Part shown: positions 30,802-44,233 of the stretch, one piece after another
Position numbering within the stretch: the stretch's first letter is position 1
Layout: each line of letters begins with the position of its first letter
Assembly (NCBI GenBank): GCA_043797085.1
Contig: JAZDQA010000006.1
Coordinates: 1 to 64,000, forward strand
Reading direction: 5' to 3'
Source of the DNA: Pseudomonadota bacterium
Lineage (GTDB): Bacteria > Campylobacterota > Campylobacteria > Campylobacterales > Sulfurimonadaceae
Length of the DNA stretch: 64,000 nt
Notes under the pieces: model-generated
The model's input: the letters and a program-made list of their open reading frames with translations, nothing else
What the model was told of the DNA's origin: nothing
Database searches by the model: none
Translations under genes and position numbers: made by a program

Positions 30802-31941
30802 ATGTCATCTGAAATCCAACGTAAAAACCACCGTATCCATCCATGTAACAGCGAACGTAAAAATGAGTTACTCAATTTTTTAATCTCACAACATCCAGAA
30901 AAACAAATTCTGATTGTAACCGCCAAGAATCCTCAATCTATTGAAATAGGAGACTCAAAAAATATCACCATAGTAGCGGATGATGACATGAAGGGATCCG
31001 AAAAAAATCAATACGATATTCTAATCAGCTACGACCTGCCTGAGAAAGCGATCATCTATATGACCCGTTTCGCCCATGCACGTGAAATGGCATTGGTATT
31101 ATTAGGTGCTGAAGATCAAAAAAATCTTTACGGTATCGAAACACTTTTAGGTCGTACTATTATCCAAGAAGCCGTTGCAGGATTTGAACCAAGTTTTGGA
31201 ATTGCCGTAGACAATCAGCAAAAAGCCGAAGCAAAAGCGCGACGTGATGCACGTGACGAGGAAGAAGCACTAAAAAAAGAACGATGGGCACGTAAAGATA
31301 GAGACAAGCCTAAGTTTTTAGGCAAAGATGAGAACGGCAAACCTATTTTTGAACAAAAAACACGTGAACGTAACCACTTTATCGATGGTACTCCACGTAA
31401 AGATGAAGAAAAATCAACAAAATCTCAGTATGCCAATAAACCGGTCTTTTTTGGTGATGATAAAAAGCAATTTAATAAACCTAGACCTGAGGGTGAACGA
31501 AAACCTTATGGTGACAAGCCTGCTTTTGGTGAAAAGAAACCGTATGGAGATAAAAAACCTTATGGGGATAAGCCAGCCTTTGGTGAAAAGAAACCGTACG
31601 GGGATAAAAAACCTTATGAGGATAAGCCAGCCTTTGGTGACAAAAAACCTTATGGAGATAAAAAACCTTATGGGGATAAGCCTGCTTTCGGTGAGAAAAA
31701 ACCGTATGGAGACAAGAAACCTTTCGGTGACAAAAAACCATATGGGGATAAGCCAGCCTTTGGTGAGAAAAAACCATTTGGAGAAAAGAAACCGTATGGA
31801 GACAAGAAACCTTATGATTCATCTTCAAGCAACCGTAGACCTGATTACGCTAAACCTGCACATTCAGAATCTACTCTGCCAAAGCGTGCTCCACGTCGCA
31901 TAAATGTCAAATCACTCAAACCATCTGAAGATAAGCAATAG
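30802..31941 (+). CDS. Degenerate DEAD-box (RhlE-like) C-terminal domain with a long Lys/Pro/Gly/aromatic repeat tail
   Basis: RKNELLNFLI...KQILIV, LISYDLP, IETLLGRTI...GFEP align by eye with the second RecA domain of RhlE-type helicases; no DEAD domain. Confidence 0.65.
   Translation: MSSEIQRKNHRIHPCNSERKNELLNFLISQHPEKQILIVTAKNPQSIEIGDSKNITIVADDDMKGSEKNQYDILISYDLPEKAIIYMTRFAHAREMALVLLGAEDQKNLYGIETLLGRTIIQEAVAGFEPSFGIAVDNQQKAEAKARRDARDEEEALKKERWARKDRDKPKFLGKDENGKPIFEQKTRERNHFIDGTPRKDEEKSTKSQYANKPVFFGDDKKQFNKPRPEGERKPYGDKPAFGEKKPYGDKKPYGDKPAFGEKKPYGDKKPYEDKPAFGDKKPYGDKKPYGDKPAFGEKKPYGDKKPFGDKKPYGDKPAFGEKKPFGEKKPYGDKKPYDSSSSNRRPDYAKPAHSESTLPKRAPRRINVKSLKPSEDKQ
31498..31821 (+). repeat. Intragenic tandem repeat: 18 x 18 bp units (KKPYGD / KPAFGE), partly in 54-bp higher-order blocks
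   Basis: Counted directly from the translation and visible in the DNA (aaaccttatgg..gataagccagcctttggtga). Confidence 0.95.
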
Positions 31942-37517: not shown

Positions 37518-38102
37518 ATGGCTATTATCTCTATCGCATCTACCAAAGGGGGAGTGGGTAAAACTTCTCTTGCTTTTTCACTCGCCAAAGACCTAGGCTA
37601 TCGCTACGCAACCAACGATATGTCCGTCGTTCTCAACAAATATAAAAACGCCCGATATTACCCTAAAAAGATACCCCTTTACCCTGATACAGTCTACGAT
37701 TTCGGAGGATTTGATGCTGATCATGTCGATGAGATTTTACGTAACTCAGACATCATCCTTGTTCCCACAACGAATGATTTAAACTCCATCATGAAAAGCT
37801 TGATTTTTATCAAAAATTACAAAGAAAAAACCATTCTCGTGTTTGCCAACATGATCGATAATCCCAATGATGCCACCGTCATAAAAGCAAAAATTCATGA
37901 ACATTTTCCTAATCTCGCCTTCACCTACCTGCGACGTACCAAACTGCTTAAAAATGCTTTAGAATCAGGAATGAGCGCTACCCAACTGTATGAATCGAGC
38001 AAACAAAACCAGCACGTCTACAAACAAGCATTTAGTGAATACAGCAAAATACTCAAGCTCTTTACAACTGATGGACACTATTTTAGTGCACCCCAATCAT
38101 GA
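37518..38102 (+). CDS. Short orphan ParA/MinD-like ATPase
   Basis: Deviant Walker A KGGVGKTS, VYDFGG, SDIILVPT. Confidence 0.8.
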   Translation: MAIISIASTKGGVGKTSLAFSLAKDLGYRYATNDMSVVLNKYKNARYYPKKIPLYPDTVYDFGGFDADHVDEILRNSDIILVPTTNDLNSIMKSLIFIKNYKEKTILVFANMIDNPNDATVIKAKIHEHFPNLAFTYLRRTKLLKNALESGMSATQLYESSKQNQHVYKQAFSEYSKILKLFTTDGHYFSAPQS

Positions 38103-39616
38103 GCACTATTCTCTTAACTACCCTCAACGCTCGCTACGCCCACAGCGCACTGGGACTTCGATATCTCTACGCTAACTTGCATGAGCTCCAAAACGATACA
38201 AAAATAGTCGAATTTACTATCAATGAGCAAATCCAAACCATCGCCGAAGATATTCTAAAACATAGTCCTAAAATCATCGGAATAAGCGTCTACATTTGGA
38301 ATGCTTCCCAAACTGCAGAACTTATAGAAATCATTAAAAAAGTAGCTCCTGATACCGTTATCGTTCTCGGAGGTCCAGAGGCTGGATACACTCCTCATCG
38401 TGTTGATTTTAGCCGTGCTGATTATATCATTAGCGGTGAAGGCGAAGTGGCATTTTATGAATTATGTAAGGAGATATTGAATCCCACTCACGGCGAACGG
38501 ATAGTGCGAACGGGAGCTGAGTTTATCAAAGCCACCATGCCTGATCTAAAAGCTATTACTCTCCCCTACCGTGCCTACAGTGATGAAGACGTAGCGAACC
38601 GAACCATCTACGTCGAAGCTTCACGCGGATGTCCATTTGAGTGCGAATTTTGCCTCTCATCTATGGATGAAAAGGTACGAAACTTTCCACTAGATGAACT
38701 CATCGAAGAATTTGAGATACTCTGGCAGCGTGGTGCGCGAAGTTTTAAATTCATCGACCGCACCTTTAATCTCAATATGACGTTTGCTAATCGTCTTTTG
38801 GACTTTTTCCTCTCTAAAGAGCCCCCTTATTTTGCCCATTTTGAAGTGATTCCCGATCATTTCCCCGACGTTCTAAAAGCCAAAATTTCTCTTTTTCCTG
38901 AGGGCTCATTGCAACTTGAAATCGGTATCCAGACCTTAGACCCCATTATCGCAAAAGGTATCAACCGTCCGCTTCGACTGGAAAAAATATTTGAAAATCT
39001 TCAGTTTTTAGAAAATGAAACAAAAGCACACATGCACCTTGATCTCATCGTCGGACTTCCGGGAGAAACACTGGCAGGATTTGGGCGCAATCTCGATAAG
39101 CTTGTTTCCCTTACCCATAGTGAAATCCAAATCGGGATCCTCAAAAACCTCTCAGGAACAACACTATCACGCCACGATAAAGAGCATGGAATGATTTACA
39201 GTGATACACCGCCGTATGACATTCTCCAAAACAACAATCTAAGTTTTGAACAAATTCAGAAAATGAAACGGTTCGCTCGCTTTTGGGATATTTTTTACAA
39301 CAGCGGAAGTTTTGAGAATACGGTGAAGTTGCTATGGGATAAGGAAAGTGTATTTAACTCATTTTACGCCTTCAGCAAATGGATTTATACCCAAACCCTC
39401 TCTACATGGAAAATATCCCTAGATCGCCAAATAACACTCATCTATGACTATCTTATTCTAAGTCATGATAAAGAATTAGTAGAAAAAGCACTCACTGAAG
39501 ATATGAGTAAACGACCAGAAAAAACAATCCCTTTTTTCCTACGACAAAAAACATTGGAAAATAAAAATAAAAGTGAAAAAAGCATAACGCCAAAACGGCA
39601 GGCAAATCGGATTTGA
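38099..39616 (+). CDS. B12-binding radical SAM protein (DUF4080-type C-terminus)
   Basis: LNARYAHSALGLRYL, SVYIWN, LGGPE, SRGCPFECEFC, FIDRTFN, YNSG.F. Confidence 0.92.
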   Translation: MSTILLTTLNARYAHSALGLRYLYANLHELQNDTKIVEFTINEQIQTIAEDILKHSPKIIGISVYIWNASQTAELIEIIKKVAPDTVIVLGGPEAGYTPHRVDFSRADYIISGEGEVAFYELCKEILNPTHGERIVRTGAEFIKATMPDLKAITLPYRAYSDEDVANRTIYVEASRGCPFECEFCLSSMDEKVRNFPLDELIEEFEILWQRGARSFKFIDRTFNLNMTFANRLLDFFLSKEPPYFAHFEVIPDHFPDVLKAKISLFPEGSLQLEIGIQTLDPIIAKGINRPLRLEKIFENLQFLENETKAHMHLDLIVGLPGETLAGFGRNLDKLVSLTHSEIQIGILKNLSGTTLSRHDKEHGMIYSDTPPYDILQNNNLSFEQIQKMKRFARFWDIFYNSGSFENTVKLLWDKESVFNSFYAFSKWIYTQTLSTWKISLDRQITLIYDYLILSHDKELVEKALTEDMSKRPEKTIPFFLRQKTLENKNKSEKSITPKRQANRI

Positions 39617-39629
39617 AATAAAGGTAGGT

Positions 39630-39654
39630 GCGCTAGAGTGACGAATTCTAGCGC
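39630..39654. terminator. Hairpin between the convergent radical SAM and porin genes
   Basis: GCGCTAGA-GTGACGAAT-TCTAGCGC. Confidence 0.6.
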
Positions 39655-39680
39655 GGTAGTTTTATATAAGGAGAATCGAA

Positions 39681-39696
39681 AGGGCCCGAAGGCCCT
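39681..39696 (-). terminator. UUCG-loop hairpin 3' of the porin gene
   Basis: Minus strand AGGGCC-TTCG-GGCCCT followed by TTCGATT. Confidence 0.65.
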
Positions 39697-39725
39697 GAAA
39701 AGGGTTTTCTAAGTACCTTAAGGTA

Positions 39726-41033
39726 TTAGAATTTCAAAGAAGCGATAATACGGAGAGTATCTGTTGTTTTATCTGTAGTATTTGTAGCTTTTACATCTTT
39801 ATCAAATGATGTATAAATAGCTGTCAAATCAAGCATTCCAACTTTAGTAGCTGCAACAACGTCCCATGCTGTAAAATCTGTATTAAGTGTACTTGCACCA
39901 GCTGCTGCCCCTGCTGTACCGCCATTGTTACCTACTTCTGCTTGAGCATAACTTGCAGATAATGCTACACCTGGAACCATCTTAGTAGAAGCACCAATTT
40001 TCCATGTATCAGTATCTGGATTTGCTGCAATTTCACCATCCATATAAATGCTGCCAAGAGATGTATAAACCATTGATTTATCACCCGTTGCAACGTTAGC
40101 AAATCCTAAAGTACCTGCACTAACAGTTGAGTAAGCTGCGTAAACGTTTACACCTGCAACATCTCCTGATGCTTTAAGAGCAAAAACATTTGTATCACGG
40201 TGATTAGCAACAGCTGTACCAAGTGTAGTTGATGTAGAATCTGGCATCATACCAGCATATTGAGCACCAACGCTAATCATACCCATCAACTTGCTATCTG
40301 CTTGCAACCAATAAGCATCTGCTACACTAGGAACATTGTAATACCATGCTTGTAATGCAGTATCTGGAAGTGATTTATTGATTACTGCTGCAGCGTATGC
40401 ACCGCTAACTGCAAAATTACCAAATTCGCCACCATAAGATACGGTACTGCCACGACCTGAACCAAGCACACCAACACCATTATGTTTTCCAACCCATGCA
40501 GCTGCTAAAATAGTATCAGGCAAGAAATAACCGTGTGCGACTACTGCTTCGAAAGTATTATCAACAACGTTCCATGATTCTGTAAAACAAAGAGGTGTTT
40601 GCAATGCCATACGTCCAGCTGCAACATCAAACTCTTTTTGAGCGTATTTCAGGTTAGCTACTTCAGCCCAATATTGATCACTTACACGCTCAGCAACAGT
40701 CGTTGCTGTTCCATTCATTTTCATTTTAACTGCTGGAACATCTCCTACTAGATTATTCTCAAGACCAAGAGTAGAGACAGCTGTTACTTTTACCGCACCA
40801 CTAACATTTTGAAGCAATTTTGCAGAGGCACCTACTTTTAATGCAGTCAATGCCATAGAGTTACCAGTTTTATCAAAAAAACCTTGAGATGTGGTTGCAC
40901 CTGCACCTGCACCTGAAAATTCTGATGTTTGGTACCAAAGTTTTGCTTCACCGTCTACTTTAATATCTTCAAGCGCATATGCACTTGTTCCGAGAGCCAT
41001 TACAGCAACTAGACTCAATTTTCCTAATTTCAT
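39726..41033 (-). CDS. Outer-membrane porin (Campylobacterota major outer membrane/OprD-like family)
   Basis: MKLGKLSLVAV signal, GRMALQTPL, NTFEA, amphipathic beta strands, C-terminal Phe, strong RBS. Confidence 0.85.
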   Translation of the reverse strand: MKLGKLSLVAVMALGTSAYALEDIKVDGEAKLWYQTSEFSGAGAGATTSQGFFDKTGNSMALTALKVGASAKLLQNVSGAVKVTAVSTLGLENNLVGDVPAVKMKMNGTATTVAERVSDQYWAEVANLKYAQKEFDVAAGRMALQTPLCFTESWNVVDNTFEAVVAHGYFLPDTILAAAWVGKHNGVGVLGSGRGSTVSYGGEFGNFAVSGAYAAAVINKSLPDTALQAWYYNVPSVADAYWLQADSKLMGMISVGAQYAGMMPDSTSTTLGTAVANHRDTNVFALKASGDVAGVNVYAAYSTVSAGTLGFANVATGDKSMVYTSLGSIYMDGEIAANPDTDTWKIGASTKMVPGVALSASYAQAEVGNNGGTAGAAAGASTLNTDFTAWDVVAATKVGMLDLTAIYTSFDKDVKATNTTDKTTDTLRIIASLKF

Positions 41034-41222
41034 TCTTTCTCCTTGTATAAACCGTTCGTAAATAAGAATTACTTATTTCGAATCATGGGACAATCATAAC
41101 AATTACTTCTTAAATATTTCTTTATTTGTATAGTATTTTCTAATATATTGACAAATTTGTTACTGTGTGAGAGAAAATTGTGATAAAAAGCGTCAGGGAG
41201 ATTTAATTTGGGGTGAGGTTTT

Positions 41223-41298
41223 CCGTTCGTGGTGAGCCCGTCGAACCATGAACCCTTCGACATACCCTATAGGGCACGTGGGCTCACAGGATGAACGG
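41223..41298. repeat. Nested palindromic REP-like element
   Basis: CCGTTCGT...ATGAACGG outer stem; GTGAGCCC/GGGCTCAC; GTCGAA/TTCGAC; internal CCCTATAGGG palindrome. Confidence 0.75.
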
Positions 41299-41304
41299 TA
41301 TATT

Positions 41305-41715
41305 TTACCAGTTACGTATACGAATATGGCAAGAAGTACATTGTTTTAACAACTGATTGTAATCTTCCAGTGCATCATCCATTCTTCCTGCATCGATCGA
41401 TGCTATCATATCATTCGAATAAAGTCTGAGCATACTTGCTGTTTTTTGAGCGAATTGATAGGCGTATTTTTGATCTTTTGGCAAAATCCATTTTACGTCA
41501 TCTCCTTCTAAGGATTTAAGCGTTCCTTGAAGCTTTTTGATTCCGGCTTTCATATCGTCAGGTGAGCTGTAAAGTCCACCGCGCTGAATTTGTTCCATGG
41601 ATTCAAGCATGGTACGCATATCTTTCATCAACATCGAGCGATGGTCTTTTTCAGCAGCATTAATCGAAGCAGCCAACAGTCCTGAAAGTACAAATGCAAT
41701 TAGTGATTTTTTCAT
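41305..41715 (-). CDS. Periplasmic class II (cytochrome c'-like) monoheme cytochrome c
   Basis: Signal peptide, helical body, single CTSCH at the extreme C-terminus. Confidence 0.85.
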   Translation of the reverse strand: MKKSLIAFVLSGLLAASINAAEKDHRSMLMKDMRTMLESMEQIQRGGLYSSPDDMKAGIKKLQGTLKSLEGDDVKWILPKDQKYAYQFAQKTASMLRLYSNDMIASIDAGRMDDALEDYNQLLKQCTSCHIRIRNW

Positions 41716-41726
41716 AATGATCCTTT

Positions 41727-42455
41727 TTAGTATTGGATTAGTTCTTTGGAAAATTCAGTCAATTTAACTGTTTTCGCCGAAATAGAAACGAGTTTTTTTG
41801 CCTCAGCCGGACCGTTATAAAACTGTTTAAGCTCCGGCTTGAACGATTTAAAATAGTCTTGGAATTTATCCAAACCTAAAATCCCGACAGCCCAAAGGGT
41901 ATCATCCGCCGCATGTTCTAAAACAACTGCTGCGAGAGGTTGAGACGCTGCTCCGCCTAGAACTTTTGCCCCTGCACGAACATCGAATGCTGACATGTGA
42001 GAAGAGCACACAATAATACCGCTTTTCTCGTATGCTATTGTCGGTGTTTTTTCAGGAACATACATGATGAAACTGTCACTTGGTGTTGGATGCGTCATTT
42101 GATGCGTACAGATGGCTACATAAGCTACAATCGTACGATCTTTGCCTACACCGCTTTTCCAAAGGTATTTTTCACCATTTTCTGATGTCAACTCAACATC
42201 AGTTAATGTCGGTTTAGGGAGATTGACCAACAAACAAGGGGTAGACGCATAAGGATAATTAAAAATATAATTGACCTCTTTTTCCAGCTTTGACGCTAAA
42301 ATCGGTTTGCCATCCGCTCCTATGAGCTGTGTTTTTTCATACGCTCTGTAAAGCGTTCCGTCTGACGCATACAAATTGCCTCGAATAAGCGATGGACTTA
42401 CCGCCATAACTGTTGCACTTGCAGCAACTACTTTTAAAAAGTTTCTTCTATCCAT
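41727..42455 (-). CDS. Tat-exported Rieske-type [2Fe-2S] protein
   Basis: MDRRNFLK Tat motif; ICTHQ and VCSSH ligand boxes; GGAASQPL loop. Confidence 0.85.
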   Translation of the reverse strand: MDRRNFLKVVAASATVMAVSPSLIRGNLYASDGTLYRAYEKTQLIGADGKPILASKLEKEVNYIFNYPYASTPCLLVNLPKPTLTDVELTSENGEKYLWKSGVGKDRTIVAYVAICTHQMTHPTPSDSFIMYVPEKTPTIAYEKSGIIVCSSHMSAFDVRAGAKVLGGAASQPLAAVVLEHAADDTLWAVGILGLDKFQDYFKSFKPELKQFYNGPAEAKKLVSISAKTVKLTEFSKELIQY

Positions 42456-42561
42456 GATGATTTCCGTGTGAATTATTTTGTGGTGTGTAGTTTAGCAGGT
42501 TTTTTGTAAAATAAAATTTTGATTTTATCTCGTTTGTTTGCTTAGTCTGTGTAATTATATG

Positions 42562-42587
42562 CATTCCCAAGCTAGAGCTTGGGAATG
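42562..42587. repeat. Perfect palindrome (REP-like), likely terminator or stabiliser of fccB
   Basis: CATTCCCAAGCT-AG-AGCTTGGGAATG. Confidence 0.75.
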
Positions 42588-42600
42588 AGAAAACTATTGC

Positions 42601-44010
42601 TTAGCTAAACAAATCTCTCATGGCACCTTTGTACCAATCGTGTGTTGCTTTTCCAAGACCTGTTGAGCGGAATTTATCGTTTACAGTATCTCCTTTTGGA
42701 ACACTTCCTTTGCTTCCGATAACTGGACCTGCAACCATAAACTCATGGTTAACCATGATTGCTTCTTCTGGATTACCATTTACCATTGAGTAGCACACGT
42801 TTGCACTTTTGTATGGAAGTGCTGATGCAACACTGTATGATTTACCGTGGAGAACGTGAGCAATCTCTTTTGCACACTCTTTACCTGACCAGATCGCTGT
42901 TTGACCGCTTGGTGGGATTGCATGTCCAACAACGTCACCGACTGCGTAAACATTTTTATCCGTTGCTGTTTGGAAAGAAACCGGTTTTTCAGCACTGGTT
43001 GCCATTTTAACTTTTTTGAATCCGTCTGGTGTAACGGCGACACCTGACATTTCAATGACTGGATTAGACATATTGTGCGGGATGAAGTTAAATACACCGT
43101 ATTTGATTGTTTTTGTCGTTTTTGTACCTTCAGTGTCTTCTTTGTTTGCAAAAACTGTCTGAACGTATGTAATCTCTTTTTTGTCGAAATCAACATCAGC
43201 GATTTTACAATTGCTTTCGTGTACTACTTGACCTTTGTTAACCTCAGCCCATGATTCTTTAAACGCTGCACCTTTAGCAATTTCAGCCGTTTCATTAAGA
43301 ATGATAACTTTACCGGTTAGCCCCTCTTTTTTCATGTAGTTAGCAATCATACTTGCACGCTCGAAAGGAGCTGGAGGACAACGGAATTTACCGGCAGGAA
43401 CAGTAATAACAACATCACCCTCTTCCATGTTTTTAACCATACGATCCAATGCGATGTGCTCACCGCCCGGAACTAATGCAGCCGGTGCTAAACGTTTAGC
43501 TTTTGCGATTTTAGCCGCATCCCATTTTGGGAATTGTCCTTTGTAGTTGTAATCAATACCGGGAGCCATAACCAAGATATCATAACCTACTGAACCTTTT
43601 GATGTATGAACCACTTTTGCAGCACGGTCAATTCCAGTAACAACAGCGGTCAACATTCCATATCCGTTTGCTTCAACCGCTTGAGAATAGTCATGCGTCA
43701 ATGTACCAAGGTTTACACCCTCGATTCCGCCAAGATTACAGTTTGAAAATGGGCAAGACATAAAGCTGTCATTTTTTTCGATAATCGCTACATCAAAATT
43801 TGCATCAATCTTTTTAAGCTCTTTAGCAACAGTTAAACCGCCGAAACCTCCACCGATAATAACAACTTGATGTTTACCAAGCATAACGCCAGCAGCTGCT
43901 GCTGCTTTTGCCGGAAGTGGATTAAAAGCAGTAGTACTGCACCCTGATACTGCAGCAGCGGCTGCACTGATACCTGCGAATTTAAATAAGTCACGTCTTG
44001 AAATGTTCAT
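42601..44010 (-). CDS. fccB: Sulfide dehydrogenase flavoprotein subunit (FccB/SoxF family)
   Basis: SRRDLFK Tat motif, GGGFGG FAD motif, SCPFSN (FAD-linked Cys), FRCPPAPFERAS and NVCYS (active-site Cys pair). Confidence 0.88.
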   Translation of the reverse strand: MNISRRDLFKFAGISAAAAAVSGCSTTAFNPLPAKAAAAAGVMLGKHQVVIIGGGFGGLTVAKELKKIDANFDVAIIEKNDSFMSCPFSNCNLGGIEGVNLGTLTHDYSQAVEANGYGMLTAVVTGIDRAAKVVHTSKGSVGYDILVMAPGIDYNYKGQFPKWDAAKIAKAKRLAPAALVPGGEHIALDRMVKNMEEGDVVITVPAGKFRCPPAPFERASMIANYMKKEGLTGKVIILNETAEIAKGAAFKESWAEVNKGQVVHESNCKIADVDFDKKEITYVQTVFANKEDTEGTKTTKTIKYGVFNFIPHNMSNPVIEMSGVAVTPDGFKKVKMATSAEKPVSFQTATDKNVYAVGDVVGHAIPPSGQTAIWSGKECAKEIAHVLHGKSYSVASALPYKSANVCYSMVNGNPEEAIMVNHEFMVAGPVIGSKGSVPKGDTVNDKFRSTGLGKATHDWYKGAMRDLFS

Positions 44011-44233
44011 GGGTTTGATTCTCCTATTACTCTTTAAAGTGCAGGTATATTAATCCCGCATTCCTTAAAGTATTATAAGATTATATAAAATGAATGTAAA
44101 AAATGATAATAAGAGTTTATTATATAGAGAAGTGTGATAAATTTGTAACAATTCCCCATCTAATGGCTTTTTTGACTATTTTTATTGTTATAATGCTATC
44201 ATATACGAATAATAATTTATAAGGATGTTACTT

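Follow-up and report, generated by a model that had tools for sequence, protein, structure and literature searches.

The window analysed here is a stretch of 64,000 nucleotides from a Sulfurimonadaceae genome (G000). Within it, two 15-mers that differ at a single base, at 39661-39675 and 41037-41051, form a 14/15 inverted repeat that brackets a porin gene, porin A. What does the 3′ copy pair with? The original prediction, which had described this repeat correctly, took the 3′ copy for an anti-SD element directed at the porin's own RBS and possibly at that of fccB. Allowing at most one mismatch, the 3′ copy has three matches in the genome: itself, the RBS of porin A and the RBS of a paralogous porin, porin B (C1:98351). 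The evidence below points to porin B.

A two-hairpin element at the 3′ end of porin A

Porin A is labelled a porin by homology. No match was found in Pfam, and the match to the Opr-porin model NF033922 is weak (E 1.5e-8) and below the cut-off; the protein is 42% identical to a paralogue that passes Pfam Porin_4. Downstream of the gene, folding bears out both hairpins of the original prediction (hairpin 1, 39681-39696; hairpin 2, 39628-39655) and the single-stranded linker between them, whose computed unpaired probability is 0.72-0.99. The z-score of the fold is -4.4 to -4.6 on the minus strand; the plus strand folds too (z = -5.4), and there the stem of hairpin 2 resembles a terminator for the convergent radical SAM gene. 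The wobble pairs of the element are G-U on the porin strand, indicating that the element is transcribed from that strand. The features of the locus are collected in Table 1.

Table 1. Features of the porin A locus, with positions in the window.
Feature	Position	Strand	Basis or remark
Convergent B12-binding radical SAM gene	38099-39616	+	Adjoins 30/47 element-bearing porins among loci examined
Element: hairpin, open linker, hairpin with conserved UCGUC loop	39628-39696	-	
Hairpin 2, stem varying with compensation	39628-39655	-	8/8 pairs changed on both sides
Hairpin 2 loop with conserved UCGUC, complementary to GACGA(A) of porin B	39638-39646	-	Invariant columns
Main seed, 20-nt open linker, antisense to SD and 11 upstream bases of porin B leader	39658-39677	-	19/20 paired
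Hairpin 1, G+C stem, UUCG loop	39681-39696	-	Fold; 5 pairs, 99.2% of cells paired, 3 changed on both sides
Gene for porin A, whose transcript carries the element; 435 aa, Opr/OprD-like outer-membrane porin by homology	39726-41033	-	ORF; porin tree clade A
Porin A own RBS region, earlier proposed target; 14/15 match here, not conserved	41037-41051	-	Rank 28/2169
Porin A 5′ UTR stem-loop	41055-41082	-	Fold z -0.9, weak alone; similar inverted repeat in many orthologous leaders
Porin A extended -10 promoter-like box	41093-41101	-	Present in many orthologues
fccB RBS, earlier proposed second target, rejected as conserved target	44017-44025	-	Rank 35/2169

A covariance model was built from 16 copies of the element (13-pair consensus, 8 double-changed pairs). 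It matches 42 of the 66 genomes of the genus, Sulfuricurvum, and 28 of the 45 good-quality ones; in the other 24 of the 66 the model found no element. When 52 distinct copies are aligned, in an alignment that is fitted to the model and includes its seed sequences, 98.5% of cells are paired and 11 of the 13 pairs show double changes, compared with 18-58% of cells in slid controls. The loop of hairpin 2 is invariant while its stem drifts. The Rfam 15 covariance models gave a chance SNORD34 match at this locus (E 2.3, inside the porin gene) and nothing relevant at four related loci.

Two other readings of the sequence were rejected. A plus-strand RBS with a small ORF at 39661-39675 has no start codon behind it here, and the change seen in 16 of 37 genomes, which would weaken its SD, accords with G-U pairing on the opposite strand. 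Nor is the element a genome-wide repeat, as this genome holds only two copies. The second (L032:3993-4074, minus strand; G000:C4:102992-103073) follows a 70% identical porin that closes the nap gene cluster, ahead of nrdD. Elsewhere in the window, a 379-aa ORF at 30802-31941 on the plus strand has a C-terminal half made of a run of short charged repeats.

The element is a feature of one porin clade. Among the loci examined, 53 of 56 profile matches lie behind the end of a porin-like ORF, two are at contig starts, and one is a partial copy behind another gene. Across a tree of 117 porins from these loci, each 330 residues or longer, it follows 41 of 44 clade-A porins, a proportion biased upward because many A loci were chosen for having it, and none of 68 on the B side. 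Of the three clade-A porins that do not have it, two carry GACGAA in the leader, and three of the 53 porin-borne copies belong to a distant porin type. Tandem duplication of the whole unit is seen at L011:2676-2890 and L021:2273-2488, and several other genomes double only hairpin 2. At L107 (G074:C17:31831, minus strand), the end of the linker and hairpin 2 lie behind a non-porin gene, as if left as a remnant after loss of the porin.

Outside the genus, a sample of the order (151 genomes) gave four weak matches, none of them the element. A search of the family (122 genomes) gave weak matches in 13 genomes of other genera: clear variants lie behind porins in two (G238, G228), G275 has a G238-type sequence with no porin seen upstream, and the rest, G250 aside, are terminator- or chance-like. 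A pattern scan of GTDB returned at least 119 stretches; among the 80 matches listed, 16 score at least 75 bits and the remainder at most 28 bits, and those 16 come under the titles Sulfuricurvum (14), Campylobacterales or Epsilonproteobacteria.

The best predicted partner of the linker: the leader of porin B

The best partner of the linker lies outside the window, in the leader of porin B (G000:C1:98369). Compared with 2169 predicted start regions of the genome, the linker ranks porin B first at -24.7 kcal/mol, with the next at -18.9 and the RBSs of porin A and fccB further down the ranking (Table 1). In the duplex, which spans the SD and the 11 bases before it (G000:C1:98348-98367), 19 of 20 bases are paired. 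In 40 shuffles of the linker that keep the anti-SD core, the best matches range from -24.2 to -17.3, so porin B beats all of them, narrowly. The second copy, on C4, ranks porin B fourth at -17.8 kcal/mol. When the whole genome beyond the start regions is scanned, with the element's own opposite strand set aside, two sites at -25.7 outscore porin B; neither has a start codon nearby, and both look to us like the strand opposite a tRNA gene.

We then compared the element and the B leader in the 37 genomes that have both, using the top-scoring copy in each and leaving out two partial matches without the core. In the variable half of the duplex, 368 of 407 cells are paired, compared with 335.9 ± 4.4 when genomes are shuffled (0/10000). 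Four columns vary together on the two sides, and the pair is never broken: column 14 (UA/CG in 35/2 genomes), column 15 (UA/AU, 23/14), column 18 (GC/AU/GU, 27/9/1) and column 19 (CG/UG/UA, 31/3/3). Two of the four pass through G-U intermediates. At a column facing the SD, a C to U change in 16 of the 37 genomes keeps a G-U pair, which fixes the strand and favours pairing between RNAs. In 35 of the 37, one central mismatch persists, at column 12 or 13, and in the sister genomes G077 and G081 column 18 differs on both sides in step.

Because kin share states, the changes were mapped on an rpoB tree (29 of the 37 genomes have rpoB; the 28 of full length were used). The target changes once, twice, three times and twice at columns 14, 15, 18 and 19, and 23, 3, 1 and 38 of the 1476 informative rpoB sites follow it no less closely than the element does. 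At column 13 there is no such co-variation, as 252 of the 1476 sites do equally well. No single column has six independent contrasts, and per-column sign tests therefore cannot reach 0.05. The duplex of 18-20 bp with the B leader is kept through compensatory changes; it is rare for two distant loci to show such clear intermolecular covariation.

The covariation is symmetric and gives no direction. The pairing could be real and act otherwise than on translation of porin B: the B leader might trigger decay of the A transcript or sponge it, RNase III might cut both strands together, or the loop might shield the 5′ end of the B mRNA. In their favour, the duplex is 18-20 bp long and RNase III was found in the genome, as were RNase Y and RNase J. 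Against these effects, the duplex covers the SD of B but no sequence that A needs for its translation, and the retained central mismatch would be expected to hinder cutting by RNase III. We regard them as unlikely.

A second contact may be made by the loop of hairpin 2. The loop (39638-39646) complements GACGA(A) at G000:C1:98315, with a duplex of -8.2 kcal/mol, and the loop and linker seeds are collinear with their two sites in the B leader. In 52 B leaders, GACGA(A) sits 6-7 bases behind a -10-like box, suggesting that it is the +1 of the porin B mRNA; the box consensus used is the one given for the phylum (PMC3847290). Of the 37 element-bearing genomes, 36 have GACGAA, and where the element is missing the motif is found in 17 of 19 full-length B leaders. 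Its losses cut both ways, in G066, which has the element, and in two full-length leaders of element-free genomes. Since the motif is also kept in these element-free genomes, and three genomes of another genus have it too, conservation alone does not establish that the loop pairs. No compensatory change was found at the loop site inside the genus, and the contact is no more than plausible. In another genus, L331:2025-2105 and L333:1994-2072 have a different element loop and their B leaders lack GACGAA, a possible matching change seen in two genomes only.

Pairing with the own RBS and with fccB is not conserved beyond the SD

The original prediction had the element closing on, or feeding back to, the RBS of porin A itself and binding fccB as well. 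In this genome the idea has a basis: the match to the own RBS is 14/15, the closure forms in the minimum-energy fold of the naked 1493-nt mRNA, the dimer gain is -16.8 kcal/mol, and the anti-SD core is able to pair with any strong RBS. The closure forms in the fold of this genome alone, however, and across orthologous porin loci pairing with the own leader is not conserved beyond the SD, the property that would be expected of a long-range cis closure or of autoregulation. In the upstream part of the duplex B beats the own leader in 34 of 34 copies for which both leaders were available (means 9.9 and 5.6 of 11 positions); at least 10 of the 11 pairs form with porin B in 29 of the 34 and with the own leader in none, and the C4 copy reaches only -4.1 with its own leader.

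The 9-nt match to fccB at 44017-44025 is likewise present in the sequence, and its 9-mer is carried by only 2 of the 2169 predicted start regions. Among 29 fccB orthologues examined, from 33 found, a run of at least nine pairs survives in 6, and in 28 of 28 genomes B is the stronger partner (mean -24.3 kcal/mol against -11.0 for fccB). Given that B pairs better than the own leader in 34/34 copies and better than fccB in 28/28 genomes, the 14/15 match is an SD match plus local coincidence. Weak cis pairing may occur in this genome, as the predicted fold suggests, but we consider own-RBS feedback with fccB as a second target very improbable. What stands of the original prediction is a conserved, structured anti-SD RNA in the 3′ region of the porin and on its strand, in a genome where Hfq was not found; the feedback and the control of fccB fall away.

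Least probable of all, if only by a little, is that the hairpins are terminators and the linker a functionless inverted copy of the B leader, alike by descent or DNA conversion: the element does read as B-leader antisense in two collinear blocks, making an origin as a relic plausible, and hairpin 2 scores as a plus-strand terminator here, but the G-U-preserving changes and the kept mismatch are unlike the outcome of conversion, column 18 differs on both sides in step between G077 and G081, element copies occur without the convergent gene, and the loop stays invariant over a drifting stem.

Transcription through the element

In one groundwater RNA library (X1), an exact contig covers 39594-41086 at a depth of 291, through the gene and both hairpins; these are assembled contigs, which carry no strand, ends or levels. 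The same library has no cover over 38335-39402, most of the convergent gene. Two further runs (X2, X3) are probably DNA of relatives, and X6 is almost empty. The contig spans both hairpins, which argues against full termination at hairpin 1; the contigs show no separate short species. The contig ends at 41086, 7 bases behind the extended -10 box, and porin A transcription therefore probably starts near that position.

Upstream of hairpin 1, no -10-like motif was found at a shared distance; at any one distance, at most 4 of 53 copies have one. The lack of such an internal promoter (type I) suggests an RNA of the processed type. A steady U tract was not found: T counts behind hairpin 2 range from 1 to 7 of 8, and behind hairpin 1 they are mostly 2-6 of 8. 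Hfq (PF17209) was not found in G000, which is 95.9% complete.

On the 5′ side of porin A, a cluster at 41305-44010 on the minus strand comprises an fccB-like flavoprotein, a SoxL2-like Rieske protein and a small cytochrome-like ORF; its contigs in X1 are separate from that of porin A. Between the cytochrome gene and the porin promoter, the intergenic stretch at 41200-41300 has very high depth with many loose ends from other organisms, and looks like a repeated mobile DNA element. In the loci examined, 18 of 47 element-bearing porins adjoin the cytochrome gene of the fccB cluster and 8 of 47 adjoin nrdD, and in seven of these eight we take the upstream box to be Fnr-like. Porin B adjoins the same ABC permease in 36 of 54 loci.

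A proposed switch between two porins

Porin A transcripts end in a two-hairpin fold whose shape, strand and position are conserved and whose linker co-evolves with the porin B leader. We think it likely, with good though not full confidence, that this 3′ end is an antisense RNA that represses the mRNA of porin B, so that making porin A probably switches porin B down. The duplex would cover the SD of porin B and block ribosome loading, and decay of the porin B mRNA would probably follow. The loop of hairpin 2 may grip the first bases of the porin B mRNA, as the second contact or the first. A fragment of 70-100 nt might be released from the porin A mRNA, with hairpin 1 as a 5′ guard of the processed RNA rather than a full terminator, perhaps stopping 5′ to 3′ decay by RNase J once the mRNA has been cut further upstream. 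The tail of the intact mRNA could serve equally well, and between a released RNA and an intact tail we see little to choose. In either case, induction of porin A would lower porin B, read here as the main porin, and exchange one set of outer-membrane pores for another. Gene context would tie this swap to respiration, as A lies behind fccB-Rieske-cytochrome genes or near nap/nrdD with the Fnr-like box, and B in a conserved housekeeping context.

Seven loci (L315:1480-1700 on the minus strand, L316, L317, L318, L319, L320 and L321) hold a free-standing intergenic sRNA candidate about 130 nt long that has a -10-like box, an anti-SD seed matching the B leader and a UCGUC-type hairpin loop. Full-length copies occur in 7 genomes of the genus, and in 6 of these the model detects no element in the porin tail; in G000 the family was not found, and L319 matched nothing in Rfam except a nearby tRNA. 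As far as sequence can tell, this family supports the B leader as a regulatory hub. A wider relative (L322, L323, L325, L326, L327) shares the 5′ part and the anti-SD, with a different terminal hairpin; four of the five have a second anti-SD in a hairpin loop.

In G061 (L143, L097) and G005 (L010), near-identical clade-A porins occur in one genome, one with the 3′ element and the other without it but with GACGAA in its leader, which looks like a switch from sender to receiver. A bolder and much more tentative proposal, on which we would place less than even weight, is a sender/receiver wiring: a portable 3′ module on inducible porins, acquired by the distant porin type as well and tandemly multiplied in some genomes, would clamp the +1 bases and the SD of any porin mRNA with a receiver leader, without Hfq and possibly as an intact tail, and the free-standing sRNA would take over in several module-free genomes. 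If true, porin exclusion among paralogues would here follow an RNA code that needs no chaperone.

Comparison with known systems

Few sRNA-target pairs are known in the Campylobacterota outside two pathogens. The pair described here comes with a named target, an exact seed and natural compensatory alleles, which makes a reporter test direct, and would connect the remodelling of a groundwater bacterium's outer membrane with its sulfur and nitrate respiration. We found no paper on the element in the literature covered, to which most subscription papers do not belong. Of five features of 3′ UTR-derived sRNAs, two were found, a 3′ region transcribed from the same strand and a conserved accessible seed that pairs with a target in trans; an internal promoter (type I) was not. 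By the tests made, the element is a member of none of the systems compared below.

MicF and MicC depend on Hfq. The element does not fit the Hfq-dependent type of porin sRNA, since neither Hfq nor a steady U-tailed terminator was found. The proposed effect, a porin switch, is the same: MicF and MicC are described as antisense RNAs over a porin RBS, such that one porin falls as the other rises (PMC3617542). They have their own promoters upstream of a porin gene, whereas here the RNA would be the tail of the porin mRNA.

In pairing chemistry, the closest likeness is to CJnc190 and RepG, for which a C/U-rich single-stranded region acting on a G-rich RBS is reported in hosts without Hfq (PMC8687705). 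Those RNAs are encoded at stand-alone or antisense-pair loci and have their seed within a loop; the anti-SD seed described here is an open linker in a porin 3′ UTR, and the second seed is in a loop. The proposed release of the tail by processing resembles FlmE (CJnc230) of Campylobacter jejuni, an RNA reported to be released in this way (PMC11187230), but its source gene and targets are flagellar and its target is no paralogue of the source gene.

In origin, the element resembles two RNAs from porin transcripts. OueS of Vibrio cholerae is an sRNA from the 3′ end and UTR of ompU, made from the porin promoter; the direct targets named for it in that account are RyhB and glyA, with no mention of pairing to the leader of a paralogous porin (PMC13376802). 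IpeX, from an E. coli prophage, is described as driven by a porin promoter, as part of a porin transcript and processed from it, and as lowering OmpC (PMC12197685). The two systems thus share an origin in a porin transcript and the lowering of another porin. They differ in that a co-evolving duplex of 18-20 bp is central here, and in that the neighbours are chromosomal metabolic genes, IpeX being prophage-borne. IpeX is described as not base pairing with ompC or ompF (PMC3617542), and the element and its target leader would offer what that description leaves out, a base-pairing mechanism for the exclusion of one porin by another.
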